In this document: piece after piece, positions 55,834 to 61,936 of the stretch | Position numbering within the stretch: position 1 is the first letter of the stretch | How the letters are laid out: each line of letters begins with the position of its first letter | Source of the DNA: a virus | DNA length: 64,000 bases | Reading direction: 5' to 3' (one strand) | Virus record (IMG/VR): IMGVR_UViG_3300028569_000021 | Span: 1-64,000 of that record | Position numbers and translations under genes: made by a program | Notes under the pieces: generated by a model | What the model was told of the DNA's origin: nothing | What the model saw: only the letters and a program-made list of their open reading frames with translations | The model's database searches: none

Positions 55834-56481
55834 TTAAGTATTTTTCTTACTAAATTCTACAAATTTATAGAATTCCGCTCTAGAATTATCATTATTATCA
55901 AGAAATGCACCTGACATACGCGCAGTTCTCATAGTAGAGTCATGCTTAATGCCCCTGTTAGAACAACAGGAATGATTTGCTTCAATCAGTACTGCAACTC
56001 CATTATTCCTTTCACATACTTTATTGACATACTCATGGATTTGTGCTGTAAGGTTTTCTTGTACTTGCGGACGACGAGCAAACCAATCTACAATGCGATT
56101 TAGCTTAGACAATCCAATAACTTTACCCTTAGCGGAAGGTATGTATGCAACATGTGCAACGCCTGTAAAGGAAGCATGATGATGTGAGCATAAAGAAACT
56201 ACTTTAATGTTATTCTGACAAACTATACCATCATATTTGTCGACATTATCAAATGCTGTAACTTTTGGTGGCTCAGTATAACATCCCATGGCTAGATCAG
56301 TTACGAAGGCCTTTGCCACTCTCAAAGGGGTATTACTGCTATTAGGATCGTTTCTCCAGTCAAAACCAAGTGCATCAAGATATGCTTCATAAGCAATTGC
56401 GGCCCTTTCAATAAGATCAGTCGTCTCTTCTGGTGTATGGGGGTTGTTGTGATTGGCGTATGAAAGTTTCTTTTTAATCAT
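55834..56481 (-). CDS. folE: GTP cyclohydrolase I
   Basis: 'TPLRVAK', 'SLCSHH', 'GLSKLNRIV...RRPQVQE' and 'HSCCSNRG'. Confidence 0.95.
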
Positions 56482-57008: not shown

Positions 57009-57332
57009 ATGCCATTTAAAAAGCAATCATCCAAAAAAACAGTTTCAAAAAATAAAGAAACAGAAATGAAAAAATATAATAAAACAGGTAAAGCTGGCAA
57101 ATCAAAGCCAGGCAGTGGTAAAGATAAGGTTGTTAAAGGCAAAAAGCTTACTGAGGCTGCTAAAGCTAAGAAAGACTACGATAAAGACGGTAGAGTAAAA
57201 ACACCAGAACAAAAGTTCAAAGGTTCTAGAGACAAGGCTATCAAGAAAGCCAAAGGTAAGAAGACTTCTACTTTAAAAGAAAATTTTAATAATTATATTA
57301 AAGATTTGCTTAAGAAAGCTTTTTTTAATTAA
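57009..57332 (+). CDS. Very basic Lys-rich late protein (candidate DNA-condensing internal protein)
   Basis: About one third Lys; 'KKDYDKDG' motif; TATAAATA upstream. Confidence 0.6.
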   Translation: MPFKKQSSKKTVSKNKETEMKKYNKTGKAGKSKPGSGKDKVVKGKKLTEAAKAKKDYDKDGRVKTPEQKFKGSRDKAIKKAKGKKTSTLKENFNNYIKDLLKKAFFN

Positions 57333-58426
57333 AAAGAACCACCAGGTCTTATATCACCTATCTTACCGGAAGCAAAACCAGGTCTTCTCTGTAAGGTATG
57401 TTTATTTTTACTTGCTGCACCTAACTTCTTCAAAGTATCTATAAGGGATTGACCCTCTGCAGCATTTCTTTCTATCTCAGCGTCTAAAGGTTCTTTTATT
57501 GAATTAGCCATTCTCGCACCACCTACTACTGCTGGTAATAATTCCTTACCAAATCTAGACGGTTTTATTATTTTTGCTGCAGCCTTTGCTTTTTTTGCTG
57601 CTTTTATTTTTGCTGCTTTTATTTTTGCTGCATCATCTGGAACTATAGTTTGTTTTGCTGTTTTTAATTTTGCAGCATCATCAACTGCTAAAGCCGCTTT
57701 TTCTGCTTGTTTAGATATAGGAACTTCCGCTTGTTTAATTAATTTTTCAAGTTTTACAATTTCCCTTTCTGGTAACAATTTATGTCTTCTTAAGAAATTA
57801 ATGTAAACTTCTGATGCTTTTTTACCGCTTGAGGTACTTATTTTATCTAAAGACTTAACACTATTAATAGAAATATTTTCTACTGCTTTTGGATTTGATC
57901 TAAACCAATCTGTTACATTTTCTACCATGTTACCTAGTGATTTTCCCCCTGGAACTAATTTAGCCATAAACTTTATTGGCATCATCAGTAATTTTAATGT
58001 ACCCCATATAAGTGTCGCAGGTTTACCTCCTACGGGTATTATAGATAAAGCAGCTAGTACTAGAAATATTGTGTTCCAAGGTCCCTGGTTTTTATCATAT
58101 TCATTTATTGCCTCAACAAATGCAGGCCAAGATAGAATTCCTGTAGGTTCAAATACAGCAATTGTATTATAAACCCATGCAGGTAAATCAGTCCAGCTAT
58201 CAAAATTAGAAAGTTCATTCCATGTTAAGTCATTTTCTGGTGGTACTTCAACATTTAAATTAAGATTTTTGAATAAAGTAGAAAACTTTGTATTAAAAAT
58301 TTTACTAGAAATATCACCTTTAAATAAATTGTGAATTTGTTGAGGTATAAAGCTTTCTGCTTCTGTAATCTGATCTTCAGATCTATACATATTAATAAGA
58401 CTCTCTATCTTTCTATCAAATATCAT
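57329..58426 (-). CDS. Late protein with hydrophobic hairpin and K/A-rich repeats
   Basis: TAAATA-N5-ATG; 'IFLVLAALSIIPVGGK'; 'DDAAK' x2 and 'AAKIK' repeats. Confidence 0.6.
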   Translation of the reverse strand: MIFDRKIESLINMYRSEDQITEAESFIPQQIHNLFKGDISSKIFNTKFSTLFKNLNLNVEVPPENDLTWNELSNFDSWTDLPAWVYNTIAVFEPTGILSWPAFVEAINEYDKNQGPWNTIFLVLAALSIIPVGGKPATLIWGTLKLLMMPIKFMAKLVPGGKSLGNMVENVTDWFRSNPKAVENISINSVKSLDKISTSSGKKASEVYINFLRRHKLLPEREIVKLEKLIKQAEVPISKQAEKAALAVDDAAKLKTAKQTIVPDDAAKIKAAKIKAAKKAKAAAKIIKPSRFGKELLPAVVGGARMANSIKEPLDAEIERNAAEGQSLIDTLKKLGAASKNKHTLQRRPGFASGKIGDIRPGGSF

Positions 58427-58489: not shown

Positions 58490-58708
58490 ATGAAAGGAAA
58501 CAACAACCAAAACATGATTGATTACAACAACAAAAACCTCCGCTCAAAAACCTTCTTCGCGAAGATTGAGCGTGATCGTAACGGTGAATTTACCGTTAAG
58601 CGTGTTAATGTTCTTGAGCGTACTAATCAGTACTCCAAGGATATCCGCCGCGTAGATGCTCGCGATTTTACGCGCGCTATCCGTAAGAACGGACTTCAAG
58701 TTGCCTAA
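58490..58708 (+). CDS. Small Arg-rich early protein
   Basis: 72 aa with its own promoter and terminator; distinct codon usage (CGT/CGC, AAC, TTC). Confidence 0.7.
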   Translation: MKGNNNQNMIDYNNKNLRSKTFFAKIERDRNGEFTVKRVNVLERTNQYSKDIRRVDARDFTRAIRKNGLQVA

Positions 58709-58733: not shown

Positions 58734-58769
58734 AAAAGAGAGAGGGAGAAATTTCTCTCTCTTTTTTTT
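58734..58769. terminator. Bidirectional Rho-independent terminator
   Basis: AAAAGAGAGAGGGA-GAAA-TTTCTCTCTCTTTTTTTT between convergent genes. Confidence 0.85.
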
Positions 58770-58994: not shown

Positions 58995-59051
58995 TTGCCT
59001 TAATTTAGGTATCAGTTATAATTTTTATAAATAAAAAAAGATCTTTGATAA
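58995..59051 (+). promoter_or_regulatory. Tandem early (TTGCCT-N16-TATAAT) and late (TATAAATA) promoters plus boxA-like GATCTTTGATAA ahead of tmRNA
   Basis: -35 at 58995-59000, -10 at 59017-59022, TATAAATA at 59026-59033, boxA-like element at 59040-59051. Confidence 0.65.
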
Positions 59052-59054
59052 TTT

Positions 59055-59495
59055 GGGGGTGTACTGGTTTTCGATTTATAATTGAAACCTAAGAGTGCAT
59101 GCAGAGGTTAATCGATGGCCTCTATAAAAATCGATTAAAAACCTAAATGCAGAGGATAATACTTCTGATCTTTTAGCTGAAGCTGAATACATCATCAATC
59201 ACGCTGACGAGTTTCTCGTTGGTTGTGAAGATGAGTACGAACTCGCAGCCTAAAAGCCTAATAGAGGATCCTCTAAATCTATTTTGAAACGCAGAGGTTT
59301 TGATGAACTGTTAGAGATCATAGAAAAACTAATACAGAGGGAACATACGACCTGATCACGTATGTAGGCAGACTTTAAAAGATGGTCGATGAGCCAAGAC
59401 AGCCTTTAGTCAAAAAATGTCAAATTCATCTAAGCATGTAGTACCTTTTAGAAGATATTGTAAAGACAGGGGTTCGAATCCCCTCACCTCCACCA
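59055..59495 (+). ncRNA. ssrA: tmRNA (one-piece, 441 nt)
   Basis: 5' GGGGGTG pairs with 3' CACCTCC-ACCA and gives a G3-U alanine identity pair. T-arm AGGGGTTCGAATCCCCT; helix 2 TGCATGC/GCATGTA; PK1 GAGG/CCTC + TTAATCGAT/ATCGATTAA. Resume codon GCA at 59149; tag ends YELAA-TAA at 59253. Confidence 0.95.
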
Positions 59496-59499
59496 ATTT

Positions 59500-59589
59500 G
59501 GAACGATGGCTGAGCGGCCGAAGGCAGAGCTTTGCTAAAGCTCCGAGGACTAAAAACCTCCGAAGGTTCAAATCCTTCTCGTTCCGCCA
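59500..59589 (+). tRNA. tRNA-Ser(GCT)
   Basis: Acceptor GGAACGA/TCGTTCC, G73 and encoded CCA; anticodon arm GAGCT-TTGCTAA-AGCTC; long variable arm; T-arm GAAGG-TTCAAAT-CCTTC. Confidence 0.95.
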
Positions 59590-59639: not shown

Positions 59640-60836
59640 ATGGCCTTACAGACTATTGAATATTTAAAATCAAAATTCGAAACAGGAGATTTACCTGATC
59701 AAAACGATTTTCAGGATTTAATAGATAGCTGTTATAATTTAACTCAGTCGGACTTATCTCTTTTAATTATAACTATTGTTGAAAATATTACAATAAATTC
59801 AAGAAATGTTTTTTACGACAATACAGCAGGTATTGATAATATTATAGTAGGTCAGAACGTACAAGATGCAATAACTCAGTTATCCTTTATGGTTAAGGAA
59901 TTAAACAACGTTGTTTTTCCTTCTCCTACGCCAACCCCTACCCCTAGTATTACACCAACTTTAACACCTTCTGTAACCCCTTCAGAGACCCCTTCAGAGA
60001 CCCCTTCTGTGACTCCTACAGTAACTCCGACACCGACACCTACAGAAACACCTAGCTTAACTCCCTCTAAAACACCATCTGTAACTCCTTCAGAAACGCC
60101 TAGCTTAACTCCCTCTAAAACACCATCTGTAACTCCCTCCAAAACGCCATCTGTAACTCCTAGCTTAACTCCCACAATTACACCATCAAATCCAACTCCT
60201 TTTTCTTTAGTATGGGATAATTTCTCTACACTACCTACTTTCTCTTATACTGATACCGGTAGTATTGAAGTTATTAATAACTCTACACAAATATTGTTGA
60301 GACCTAAAAGCGCGCTATTGACATTTGAAAGTAGTTATAATACTGCAAATGGAGATGTTAACTTTTCGAGCTGCTCTAATCTAACATTTTTAAGACTTAA
60401 AGATAACGGTATTTCTAGTTTAAATGTTTACAATTGTACATCTTTAGATATCTTAGACTGTTCTACTAATAATCTCTTATCTCTTGATATTATATCATGC
60501 TCCGTTTTAACAGATCTTGATGCAAGTGGAAATCAATTAAATACAGTAACGCTTAGTGGGCTTACTCTTTTAAATACAGTTAATTTAGAAGGAAATAACA
60601 TAAGTTCTTTAAATGTTACTAATGATGTAAACCTAAGTTCAATTAATATAGGCTATTGTAACTTTAATATTTCCGATTTAGATACTTTATTTAATAATTT
60701 ACAGGATCGTACAAGCTCTACATCTGGTAATATTGATATATATTCCAATCCCGGTACTAGTGGTGCTAATTCTTTAATAGCAGAAGGAAAAAACTGGGTA
60801 GTTAACAAGATTGGCCCATTAAATGCTCAAGTCTGA
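59640..60836 (+). CDS. Putative tail fibre/adhesin: N-terminal anchor motif, TP(S/T) repeat stalk, C-terminal leucine-rich repeats
   Basis: '[22 protein letters not shown]'; about 90 aa of TPS(V/K/E/L) repeats; LRRs '[16 protein letters not shown]', '[11 protein letters not shown]'; late promoter. Confidence 0.7.
59920..60200 (+). repeat. 12-nt-period coding tandem repeats (TPSx tetrapeptides)
   Basis: Repeated cctagcttaactccctctaaaacaccatctgtaactcc and gagaccccttc units. Confidence 0.85.
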
Positions 60837-60906: not shown

Positions 60907-61509
60907 ATGAAAAGAGTATTTCTGTTCTTAATATTTTTTTGCTTTTGCTTACCTTCCTGTACTATATATACAGAAAAGCAATCAGAAGCATTATCACGTT
61001 CTGTGTATGCAACAAAAGATTCTTTAGATAATGCTAGATTAGATTTAGCAGATACATATACTAGTGAGTCAGTAAGAATAGTAAAGCCGCCAAAACAAAG
61101 AATAGATATTAAACCTGTTTACAAAAAAACTATTAATGTTATTTCAAGTCAAAGTAAAGCAAGTCCAACTTTTATAAACAAACAAAGGGTTTTAATAATT
61201 CCAGAAAAATATAGAGGTGACACTGTTGTTGTAGTTAGCTCAGAAGAATATCAGCAGCTTTTAAAAGATAAAGAAACATATGATCAAATAGAGAAAGATA
61301 ATAAAAATTTATTCGAGACAAAGCAATTAGTAGATCAGGAAATAATACGTCAAATGGAATATAACGATAAAATGATAAAAGATTTGAATATAATGCAGAA
61401 AAAATTGGTAGAAAAAGATTTAGCTATTTTGCAAAGAAATATTGTAATAGTACTACTTCTAGCTGCTATGGGCGGGGCAACATATCTAAGAATAAAGGGA
61501 ATACTTTAA
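60907..61509 (+). CDS. Putative unimolecular spanin
   Basis: Lipoprotein signal with lipobox LPS-C18 plus a C-terminal TM helix 'IVIVLLLAAMGGATYL'; first gene of the lysis cluster. Confidence 0.6.
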   Translation: MKRVFLFLIFFCFCLPSCTIYTEKQSEALSRSVYATKDSLDNARLDLADTYTSESVRIVKPPKQRIDIKPVYKKTINVISSQSKASPTFINKQRVLIIPEKYRGDTVVVVSSEEYQQLLKDKETYDQIEKDNKNLFETKQLVDQEIIRQMEYNDKMIKDLNIMQKKLVEKDLAILQRNIVIVLLLAAMGGATYLRIKGIL

Positions 61510-61510
61510 T

Positions 61511-61936
61511 ATGTGGGAGAAAATAGTTGATATAACAAAAACAGCGAGTGCTATGCTTACTAGTGGTAAAGTACCTCCCAATACTCCACCTGAGTATACA
61601 GAAAATTTAAGTAAAATAAACTTCCTTGCATCTAAGAAATTTTATGTTGTGTTTTGCTCAGTAATTATTCTTGCTTTGTTTTACGTTGCTAGTATTGTAG
61701 TTTTGTTTTTAACTGCTACTTCTCCTAGTTTAACTGTTCCTTTTGTAACCATATTTACAGAAACTATTAAAATCTTAGCAGTAATAATTGCAAGTTATCT
61801 GGGAGTACAAACGGTTTTAGATTATAGAATGCAATCAAACAGTAGTGTTAATTTACATGGTCAAAATACAGTAATTAAGGAAGATATAACTGTAATACAA
61901 ACAAACATAAAAGATGAAGATTATGAACTCTATTAA
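61511..61936 (+). CDS. Putative holin (2 TM)
   Basis: 'SKKFYVV' followed by two TM helices, then 'YLGVQ'; lies between spanin-like and endolysin genes. Confidence 0.6.
   Translation: MWEKIVDITKTASAMLTSGKVPPNTPPEYTENLSKINFLASKKFYVVFCSVIILALFYVASIVVLFLTATSPSLTVPFVTIFTETIKILAVIIASYLGVQTVLDYRMQSNSSVNLHGQNTVIKEDITVIQTNIKDEDYELY

Follow-up and report, generated by a model that had tools for sequence, protein, structure and literature searches.

Does a phage gene for transfer-messenger RNA (tmRNA) whose tag frame runs to 34 codons encode nothing more than a drawn-out degradation signal, or has a functional peptide been built into the label that it would place on unfinished proteins? The gene in question lies in a 64,000-nucleotide (nt) stretch of DNA, referred to here as the window, which covers positions 1 to 64,000 of the virus record IMGVR_UViG_3300028569_000021, a 93.8-kb IMG/VR viral contig that is about 44% complete. 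Tags of tmRNAs are usually regarded as simple degradation signals, whereas here an insert of about 24 residues is kept inside an otherwise ordinary tag. The best explanation as a whole, to which we give a probability of roughly three in four, is that the window encodes a functional phage tmRNA that relabels unfinished proteins with a 34-residue, two-part tag.

Both ARAGORN and Rfam find a one-piece tmRNA of 441 nt on the plus strand, with identical coordinates (59055-59495) and an encoded CCA. The match to RF00023 is full-length (model positions 1-374) and scores 120.1 bits against a gathering score of 47 (E 2e-46); a whole-genome Rfam search of the virus record gave the same RF00023 result for the tmRNA. 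The original prediction, made from the sequence alone, had described an intact tRNA-like domain and first pseudoknot (PK1), and both can be read in the sequence and are borne out, as is the tmRNA call itself by the two programs, by covariation in 33 distinct relatives. The tRNA-like domain has a 7-base-pair acceptor stem with the alanine identity pair G3:U70 (kept in 33/33 relatives), a T-arm, a discriminator A and a 3' CCA. Compensatory changes occur in one acceptor pair, in all five T-arm pairs, in four of the five pairs of PK1 stem 1, which is 100% paired, and in 6/6 pairs of the main helix of PK1 stem 2. The long helix 2, which stands in place of the anticodon arm, has 22 pairs in three segments, with 77-93% of cells paired and both-side changes in 16 pairs, figures that are somewhat biased toward the window since the pairing was derived from the window sequence itself. 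Over the whole fold 89.5% of cells pair, as opposed to 40-55% when the partners are slid, and 32 of the 46 pairs are altered on both sides. While the RNA scaffold has a mean column identity of only 59% among relatives and the T-arms differ, the pairs are retained. In the PK2-PK4 region 3' of the tag, the Rfam alignment has low posterior probability and large inserts, and the length is highly variable among relatives. The RNA fold is under selection, and the RNA is very probably a working, phage-encoded, one-piece tmRNA.

The tag frame is open from 59149 to 59250, followed by TAA at 59251-59253, giving 34 codons with 11 Asp or Glu and no Lys or Arg; no in-frame ATG, GTG or TTG occurs upstream of 59149 back to the stop at 59125-59127. 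An open frame of 34 codons is by itself within chance in AT-rich DNA, and the tag is judged real because it is conserved among relatives, not because of the length of its frame. In Escherichia coli the resume codon lies 12 nt 3' of PK1, and U85 and A86 set the frame (PMC2481249). In the window the linker AAAAACCUAAAU separates the end of PK1 (59136) from GCA and has U at -5 and A at -4, and in the Rfam alignment the consensus resume codon falls on GCA 59149-59151. ARAGORN prefers a start 30 nt downstream, at GAA 59179, which lies in the same frame and gives a 24-residue tag; it makes a matching call in the relative L004, and the pentamer before 59179, UAGCU, resembles the UAGUC of E. coli and likewise carries U at -5 and A at -4 (PMC2481249). 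Were this start the true one, the ten upstream codons would be an untranslated linker. We regard this as most unlikely, since 42 nt would then separate PK1 from the resume codon, where a gap of about 12 nt is usual, and since the Rfam consensus aligns to a different codon. The ten codons that ARAGORN omits also vary as coding sequence does: their summed entropy over 60 distinct tags is 4.6, 3.5 and 10.3 bits at codon positions 1, 2 and 3, and between the window and the relative L005 they differ only synonymously. In addition, when the resume element was located without regard to frame, its distance to the core motif of the tag (described below) was always 30, 33 or 36 nt in 60 distinct relatives, that is, in steps of three only. 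The Rfam position, the 12-nt linker with its U and A, and the codon-type variation in relatives lead us to prefer 59149, and the tag very likely consists of 34 codons from this GCA. The start and length given in the original prediction thus stand, on the Rfam position, the linker and a codon comparison of about 90 relatives; it had also allowed that a resume codon further downstream might restore a normal-length tag, and no such codon was found, the ARAGORN version still being more than twice the usual length. A caution for annotation follows from this family, in that ARAGORN shortens its tags or overlooks genes entirely: among the loci from the IMG/VR scan with the tmRNA 3' end, it missed three of the seven full-length tmRNAs that Rfam detected.

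The peptide can be read as an ordinary AEDN...Y(A/E)LAA tag of about 9-10 residues into which an acidic insert of about 24 residues has been placed. An AEDN start is typical of ordinary tags of the clostridial type. Residues 1-4 are AEDN, residues 5-22 form a predicted helix, residues 8-23 hold the conserved core, residues 27-29 are an acidic run, and residues 30-34 are YELAA. AlphaFold2, supplied with an alignment of 48 tags, predicts the helix at residues 5-22 with a predicted local distance difference test score of about 91-93 and the tail with less confidence; the core of the insert, about 16 residues, is predicted to be helical. Its hydrophobic residues lie on one face, with a hydrophobic moment of 0.40 that is reached by 3.9% of shuffles. 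The net charge of the peptide is about -11, and for this reason self-association is deemed implausible. The tag ends in E-L-A-A and so has the Leu-Ala-Ala of a ClpXP-type degron (rule: PMC9382460). It does not have the form of a compact ClpXP degron of 10-11 residues, about 24 residues lying between AEDN and YELAA, nor does it have the Mollicute-type NYAFA C-terminus (motif per PMC9382460), its own end being YELAA. ESM Atlas look-alikes of the tag comprised unnamed clusters only, below 0.9.

The tag belongs to a family. A scan of IMG/VR with the 3' end of the tmRNA returned five clear relatives, a more distant tmRNA (L007) and two other long-tag phage tmRNAs. A motif scan of IMG/VR with a degenerate DNA pattern for A-E-Y-I-x-N-x-A-x-E-F returned 90 loci from about 70 samples, 90/90 of them in the tag frame, and the tags of the family comprise 60 distinct sequences of 32-35 codons and two of 45 codons. 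The latter (L015:83-217 and L016:9915-10049) have an extra insert of about 11 residues after the helix and exceed the published range of tag lengths, 8-35 residues (PMC8012679). With that range, the 25-residue tag of the cultured phage Bxz1 and relatives of up to 45 codons, the description of the window tag as exceptionally long was an overstatement. The family consensus has an AEDN start, the core AEAEYIFNNADEF, an acidic run and a Y-x-L-A-A end. The window tag opens in the A(E/D)D manner, has the family core (consensus AEAEYIFNNA(D/S/A)EF) at residues 10-22 and goes on through an acidic run to a hydrophobic end; it scores 72.9 bits against the family profile and departs from the consensus core at F16I and N18H, while the E. 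coli tag aligns to this profile by its last eight residues only (DENYALAA). One locus, L077, encodes a peptide identical to the window tag, and that of L058 differs by one residue. In the sets that were sampled by way of the tRNA-like domain, the exact core is present in 22 of the 24 family tags, and in the other two it is altered conservatively (Tyr to His, Phe to Tyr). A scan with the 5' acceptor 19-mer mostly returned permuted tmRNAs of other kinds and is a poor unbiased sample, and a 20-mer of the window tmRNA's own 5' end found three loci only.

The phages that carry these tags are diverse. Their DNA polymerases are 35-76% identical to that of the window phage, and one complete carrier of 170 kb, G009, has 10-19 gene clusters in common with the T4-like carriers, as against 63-74 among the T4-like carriers themselves; the tmRNA gene is therefore found on at least two phage backbones. 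A blastn search of the tmRNA against 50,697 GenBank phage records gave no match, so that there is no cultured relative at the DNA level in those records, and full-text literature searches found no description of this tag family. The family is a large one that so far is found only in uncultured aquatic phages, most of them T4-like.

If the peptide matters to these phages, this should be apparent from how its codons vary. Over the 60 distinct tags the entropy of the whole tag is 13.0, 12.0 and 33.0 at codon positions 1, 2 and 3, the third positions being about 2.5 times more variable, and all changes of tag length among relatives keep the frame. Codons are exchanged freely where the amino acid is fixed (GCT/GCC/GCA/GCG; TTA/TTG/CTA; GAT and GAC 28 each). 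Because the third positions vary most and the length changes are all in frame, the peptide is taken to be under selection, and the sequences indicate that selection acts on the RNA fold and on the peptide alike. Conservation of the peptide core is stricter than that of the DNA polymerase of the carriers.

An explanation at the level of the RNA would be that this stretch is conserved for intramolecular pairing, as a protein-binding RNA element or for a small-RNA function. In other species the tmRNA reading frame is partly folded (helix 5), which speaks for such an explanation, as does a hairpin-like element at 59150-59167 that overlaps the first codons of the tag. Variation at third positions with fixed amino acids is, however, the opposite of what an RNA-level constraint would produce, and we find this explanation scarcely credible. 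A second alternative is that the long tag has no special role, being an ordinary degradation tag with a tolerated spacer whose conservation reflects a recent spread of the gene. The tag template of E. coli can be altered with little effect on ribosome rescue (PMC2481249), an LAA end is sufficient alone for ClpXP (PMC9382460), and our searches found no reader of the tag; furthermore, unrelated long tags occur on other phage tmRNAs (Bxz1, L006, L009), suggesting that length may be loosely constrained in phages. Nevertheless, the peptide core has remained unchanged while the RNA scaffold diverged to 59% mean column identity, with differing T-arms and many compensatory changes. The synonymous sites are well mixed, as the equal counts of GAT and GAC illustrate, so that a recent spread cannot explain the conservation, and the polymerases of the carriers fall to 35% identity, with one carrier on an unrelated backbone. 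A spacer without a role is thus unlikely. The proposal that the extra residues, some 24 in number, act as a functional peptide module gains from these results, given purifying selection across phages whose polymerases are 35-76% identical.

It had been recognized that the case for a phage-specific tag would fall if the host's own tmRNA carried the same one. The same motif scan, run over one genome per species for 185,579 species of bacteria and archaea, produced 13 hits; all of these fell outside tmRNAs, in ordinary or short unannotated open reading frames (ORFs) of unrelated taxa. A host origin of the tag therefore finds no support among these genomes. Three Prevotella contigs (L098:6674-6706, L103:3815-3847 and L107:477-509) share a short ORF of 38-56 residues, outside any tmRNA, with the sequence ELAEYI(S/F)NSADEFI, whose resemblance to the tag core is probably a chance match aided by the search pattern.

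Evidence that the RNA is made comes from four lake metatranscriptome runs of one study, in each of which a contig 97% identical to the tmRNA spans 59055 or 59062 to 59493 or 59495. In two runs the contig borders directly on Illumina adapter sequence at 59495, the CCA end, and in one run it does so at 59062. The depth of the tmRNA contig is 1840x, 880x, 26x and 12x, compared with 3-24x for contigs of flanking genes, contig depth being a poor measure of expression. Only two of the differences between this 97% relative and the window lie in the tag frame (59154 and 59241), both of them synonymous, and the other ten or eleven lie outside it. This is good evidence, as distinct from a measurement, that the tmRNA is made and has roughly its mature size.

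A possible course of events can be put together from these features. The gene would be transcribed from its own promoter together with a tRNA-Ser gene, and the transcript would be trimmed to the 441-nt RNA ending in CCA. The host alanyl-tRNA synthetase would charge the tmRNA by way of G3:U70, and host SmpB would bring it into stalled ribosomes. No SmpB was found in the contig of the window phage or in five relatives that are 96-100% complete, and because the phage is without SmpB the tmRNA must use the SmpB, alanyl-tRNA synthetase and EF-Tu of the host. Translation would resume at GCA 59149, and 34 encoded residues would be added after the charged alanine. Phage T4 destroys host mRNA, which should strand ribosomes. 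By analogy the window phage may strand ribosomes likewise; its tmRNA would then free them and label the unfinished proteins, and during infection the phage would take over ribosome rescue with a label of its own. The LAA end would still route tagged proteins to host Clp-type proteases (cf. PMC9382460).

That the phage brings no SmpB has also been weighed as a sign that the RNA is mainly a decoy or inhibitor, which soaks up SmpB and blocks host trans-translation or floods the Clp proteases. Titration of SmpB has been proposed for the molecule of mycobacteriophage DS6A that has a tRNA-like domain only (PMC4131195), the window tmRNA appears abundant in the metatranscriptome contigs, and the original prediction had named protease saturation among possible roles; its other suggestions, an adaptor or protease selector and a solubility tag, are guesses. 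For a pure SmpB sponge, on the other hand, a translated frame, PK1 and a conserved peptide would be superfluous, yet selection acts on each of them. Flooding of proteases would be compatible with the data. On balance we consider a decoy very unlikely.

Under the preferred explanation, a functional tmRNA with a two-part tag, the role of the helix can be put in two ways. Tentatively, and at well under even odds, it would be a proteolysis-related docking site, an extra docking surface whose reader is more likely to be of the host than of the phage and which could speed or redirect the fate of the protein. If so, these phages would relabel to their own advantage what stalled ribosomes have made, which would add a new layer to the take-over of the host, and synthetic biology could draw from the insert an orthogonal tag for degradation or targeting. 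A little more doubtful is the idea that the acidic helix is a phage-specific address label by which unfinished proteins, mostly those of the host, are marked for a dedicated reader, which would be an adaptor or unfoldase of the host or else a phage protein that has diverged beyond the reach of BLAST; the phage might then steer rescued chains through faster recycling, through sequestration or by blocking host proteases. A large group of abundant lake phages would in that event have rewritten the protein quality control of bacteria. The tag probably does more than mark proteins for destruction, since its peptide is conserved in many related phages and it is absent from all bacteria sampled.

A phage-encoded reader was sought in several ways. 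The tag profile matched no other ORF of the 94-kb contig, and over 91 loci no neighbouring gene accompanied the tmRNA in more than 24, the commonest neighbours having no assigned family. Beyond the window, at 79684-89176 of the whole genome (G000; L113, L114), an acidic F-x-D-x4-E-L or a similar motif forms the C-terminus of seven ORFs that differ in length; this C-terminal family was considered as a look-alike of the tag and rejected, as the motif does not resemble it. Among the complete relatives one encodes a Clp-type AAA+ protein of 831 residues and two others ClpP (G001:C1:195982-196500, L112; G002:C1:94394-94888, L110; G004:C1:46683-47171, L111).

Besides the ARAGORN start and the limits of contig depth, several points weigh against the relabelling of proteins as we have described it. 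The evidence for tagging is at the level of RNA and sequence. The RNA evidence consists of assembled contigs from one study and concerns a 97% relative rather than the window phage. Eight of the core residues were fixed by the search pattern, so that their invariance in the motif-scan set is circular, and unbiased sampling of the core is limited to the smaller sets found through the tRNA-like domain. The host's own tag was compared only indirectly, through the sampled species genomes. Comparisons by tag profile, neighbourhood and shared genes found no phage-encoded reader: at the level of BLAST, four complete carriers, one of them on the different backbone, have in common only a DnaB-like helicase, PhoH and a GDP-mannose-dehydratase-like enzyme, and of five complete relatives ClpP is present in two and a Clp-type ATPase in one. 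Our best guess is that the reader is a host factor or a divergent phage protein.

Table 1. Coordinates of the tmRNA, its parts and the adjoining transcription signals in the window.
Feature	Position	Strand	Basis
tmRNA gene	59055..59495	+	ARAGORN, Rfam, covariation, RNA-library contigs
Acceptor stem, 5' strand GGGGGUG, pairing with 59485-59491	59055..59061	+	read from sequence
T-arm	59468..59484	+	sequence, Rfam, covariation
Acceptor stem, 3' strand	59485..59491	+	sequence, Rfam, covariation
Discriminator A and CCA	59492..59495	+	sequence, Rfam, covariation
PK1	59103..59136	+	stem 1 = 59103-59107/59119-59123; stem 2 = 59110-59116/59130-59136
Single-stranded, frame-setting linker of 12 nt (AAAAACCUAAAU; U at -5, A at -4)	59137..59148	+	sequence; rule from PMC2481249
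Tag reading frame (resume GCA, 34 codons, stop TAA)	59149..59253	+	sequence, Rfam, codon comparison, AlphaFold2
Alternative in-frame resume codon GAA of ARAGORN, judged a miscall	59179..59181	+	weighed against Rfam, codon variation, linker
Terminator-like hairpin and T-run closing upstream gene 58490-58708	58734..58765	+	sequence
Sigma-70-like promoter, TTGCCT-16 nt-TATAAT (10/12), about 30 nt 5' of mature end	58995..59022	+	consensus match only
TATAAATA, T4 late-promoter consensus, overlapping region just after -10 box	59026..59033	+	sequence match only
tRNA-Ser(GCU), 4 nt after tmRNA CCA, followed by T-run	59500..59589	+	ARAGORN, Rfam

The virus itself is a T4-like myovirus, and its tmRNA a phage tmRNA, on account of PHROG matches to a tail sheath, a large terminase, a T4-type DNA polymerase, a DnaB-like helicase and an SbcC-like nuclease subunit. 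Its DNA polymerase shares only about 30% identity with its counterpart in any cultured phage. Of the 21 public runs listed as holding the window stretch, 20 are lake-water metagenomes, and only lake runs hold at least one fifth of its words. In some relatives the DNA polymerase gene is found as two or three segments with gaps of hundreds to thousands of bases between them (G004:C1:85628-90903; G005:C1:115427-118338), which could be split genes or the result of an intron or intein.

The tmRNA gene opens a new transcription unit, as the terminator-like hairpin closes the gene upstream (Table 1), and the late-promoter-like octamer is a possible second promoter. The tRNA-Ser(GCU) is the sole tRNA in the window and probably shares a transcript with the tmRNA, RNase P cutting between them. 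Pfam assigned no family to the neighbouring ORFs 57329-58426, 58490-58708, 60907-61509 and 61511-61936, the first of which has no PHROG either; ORF 59640-60836 has a weak, sub-threshold hint of leucine-rich repeats in Pfam and matches two PHROGs of unknown function. A GTP cyclohydrolase I (FolE) is encoded at 55834-56481, 3 kb upstream of the tmRNA. In a subset of the relatives an RNA ligase gene lies upstream near the tmRNA in 16/16 loci (L075:1473-2486) and a metallophosphoesterase gene lies nearby, usually downstream, in 15 loci (L094:5953-6666), which suggests an RNA-repair and translation-maintenance region in some relatives.

In the 102 ORFs of the whole genome, Shine-Dalgarno sequences precede 11% of starts compared with 14% in the background, thus showing no enrichment. 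Upstream of start codons G is depleted and A is enriched, and TAAATA lies within 15 nt of 27 of the 102 starts. The link that the original prediction drew from the tmRNA to leaderless mRNAs, and with it to a translation-takeover system, is thus an association only, as the missing enrichment demonstrates neither leaderless genes nor a tie to the tmRNA.

Other RNA elements were seen on lake phage contigs. Permuted tmRNAs (RF04321, beta and alpha types) are present on L157, L158, L161, L162, L163, L166, L167 and L169, and these loci have the same 5' acceptor 19-mer as certain members of the long-tag family. The tags that can apparently be read from them are in most cases 10-15 residues long; others run to 29-31 residues, contain several basic residues and are without the family core. 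The eight residues read for L163 are unreliable. The tmRNA model also matches 72 nt at L159:7355-7426 with 66.7 bits, from model position 1 to 374; this is apparently a mini-tmRNA that consists of the tRNA-like domain alone, as in DS6A. A GOLLD RNA (L167:2524-2979, 175.8 bits) lies amid a tRNA array near a permuted tmRNA on its contig, and a group I intron match (L161:5544-5735, 69.3 bits) lies within a phage tRNA array.

Phage tmRNAs are known from mycobacteriophages, Bacillus phage G, Melnitz, pelagimyophages and huge phages (PMC4131195, PMC9004378, PMC7162821), and the window RNA can be set beside these and their bacterial counterparts. With the tmRNA of E. coli (tag ANDENYALAA) it shares the G3:U70 acceptor stem with CCA, the T-arm, the long helix 2, PK1, a 12-nt A-rich linker with U-5 and A-4, the GCA resume codon and the Y-x-L-A-A end. 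It differs in having 34 codons rather than ten, with an acidic insert of about 24 residues between AEDN and YELAA, and, unlike a standard bacterial tmRNA, its gene is in a phage without SmpB and its tag in no sampled bacterium. Among the subcluster C1 mycobacteriophages (tmRNA Website; PMC4131195), the cultured myovirus Bxz1 likewise has a one-piece tmRNA with adjoining tRNA genes, and its tag, at 25 residues, is also acidic, without basic residues and far above the typical bacterial length. However, the two tags have no detectable similarity (1.9 bits against the family profile), which gives no ground for homology; that of Bxz1 ends in ALV rather than LAA and has no amphipathic signal, and the host and phage lineage are unrelated.

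The OM43 phage Melnitz and the pelagimyophages (PMC9004378; RF04321) are aquatic T4-like phages that also have their own tmRNA behind an early promoter, and the roles proposed for theirs, to keep the ribosomes that the phage has hijacked at work and to tag proteins of the host so that these can be recycled, may be shared here, although their tmRNAs are permuted and in two pieces while the window RNA is one-piece and has an acidic insert. Among bacteria, the longer tags of Mollicutes, such as the mf-ssrA of Mesoplasma florum, which is read by Lon (PMC9382460), provide a precedent for length carrying specificity; that tag ends in NYAFA, whereas the window tag keeps LAA and its extra part is an internal acidic helix by prediction. 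A parallel to the arrangement within the tag is the engineered DAS+4, in which residues placed between the adaptor site and the ClpX site alter delivery to ClpXP (PMC9382460). DAS+4 adds four arbitrary residues, while the insert of the window tag, with about 24 residues that are conserved in sequence and largely predicted to be helical, is for these reasons more than a spacer.

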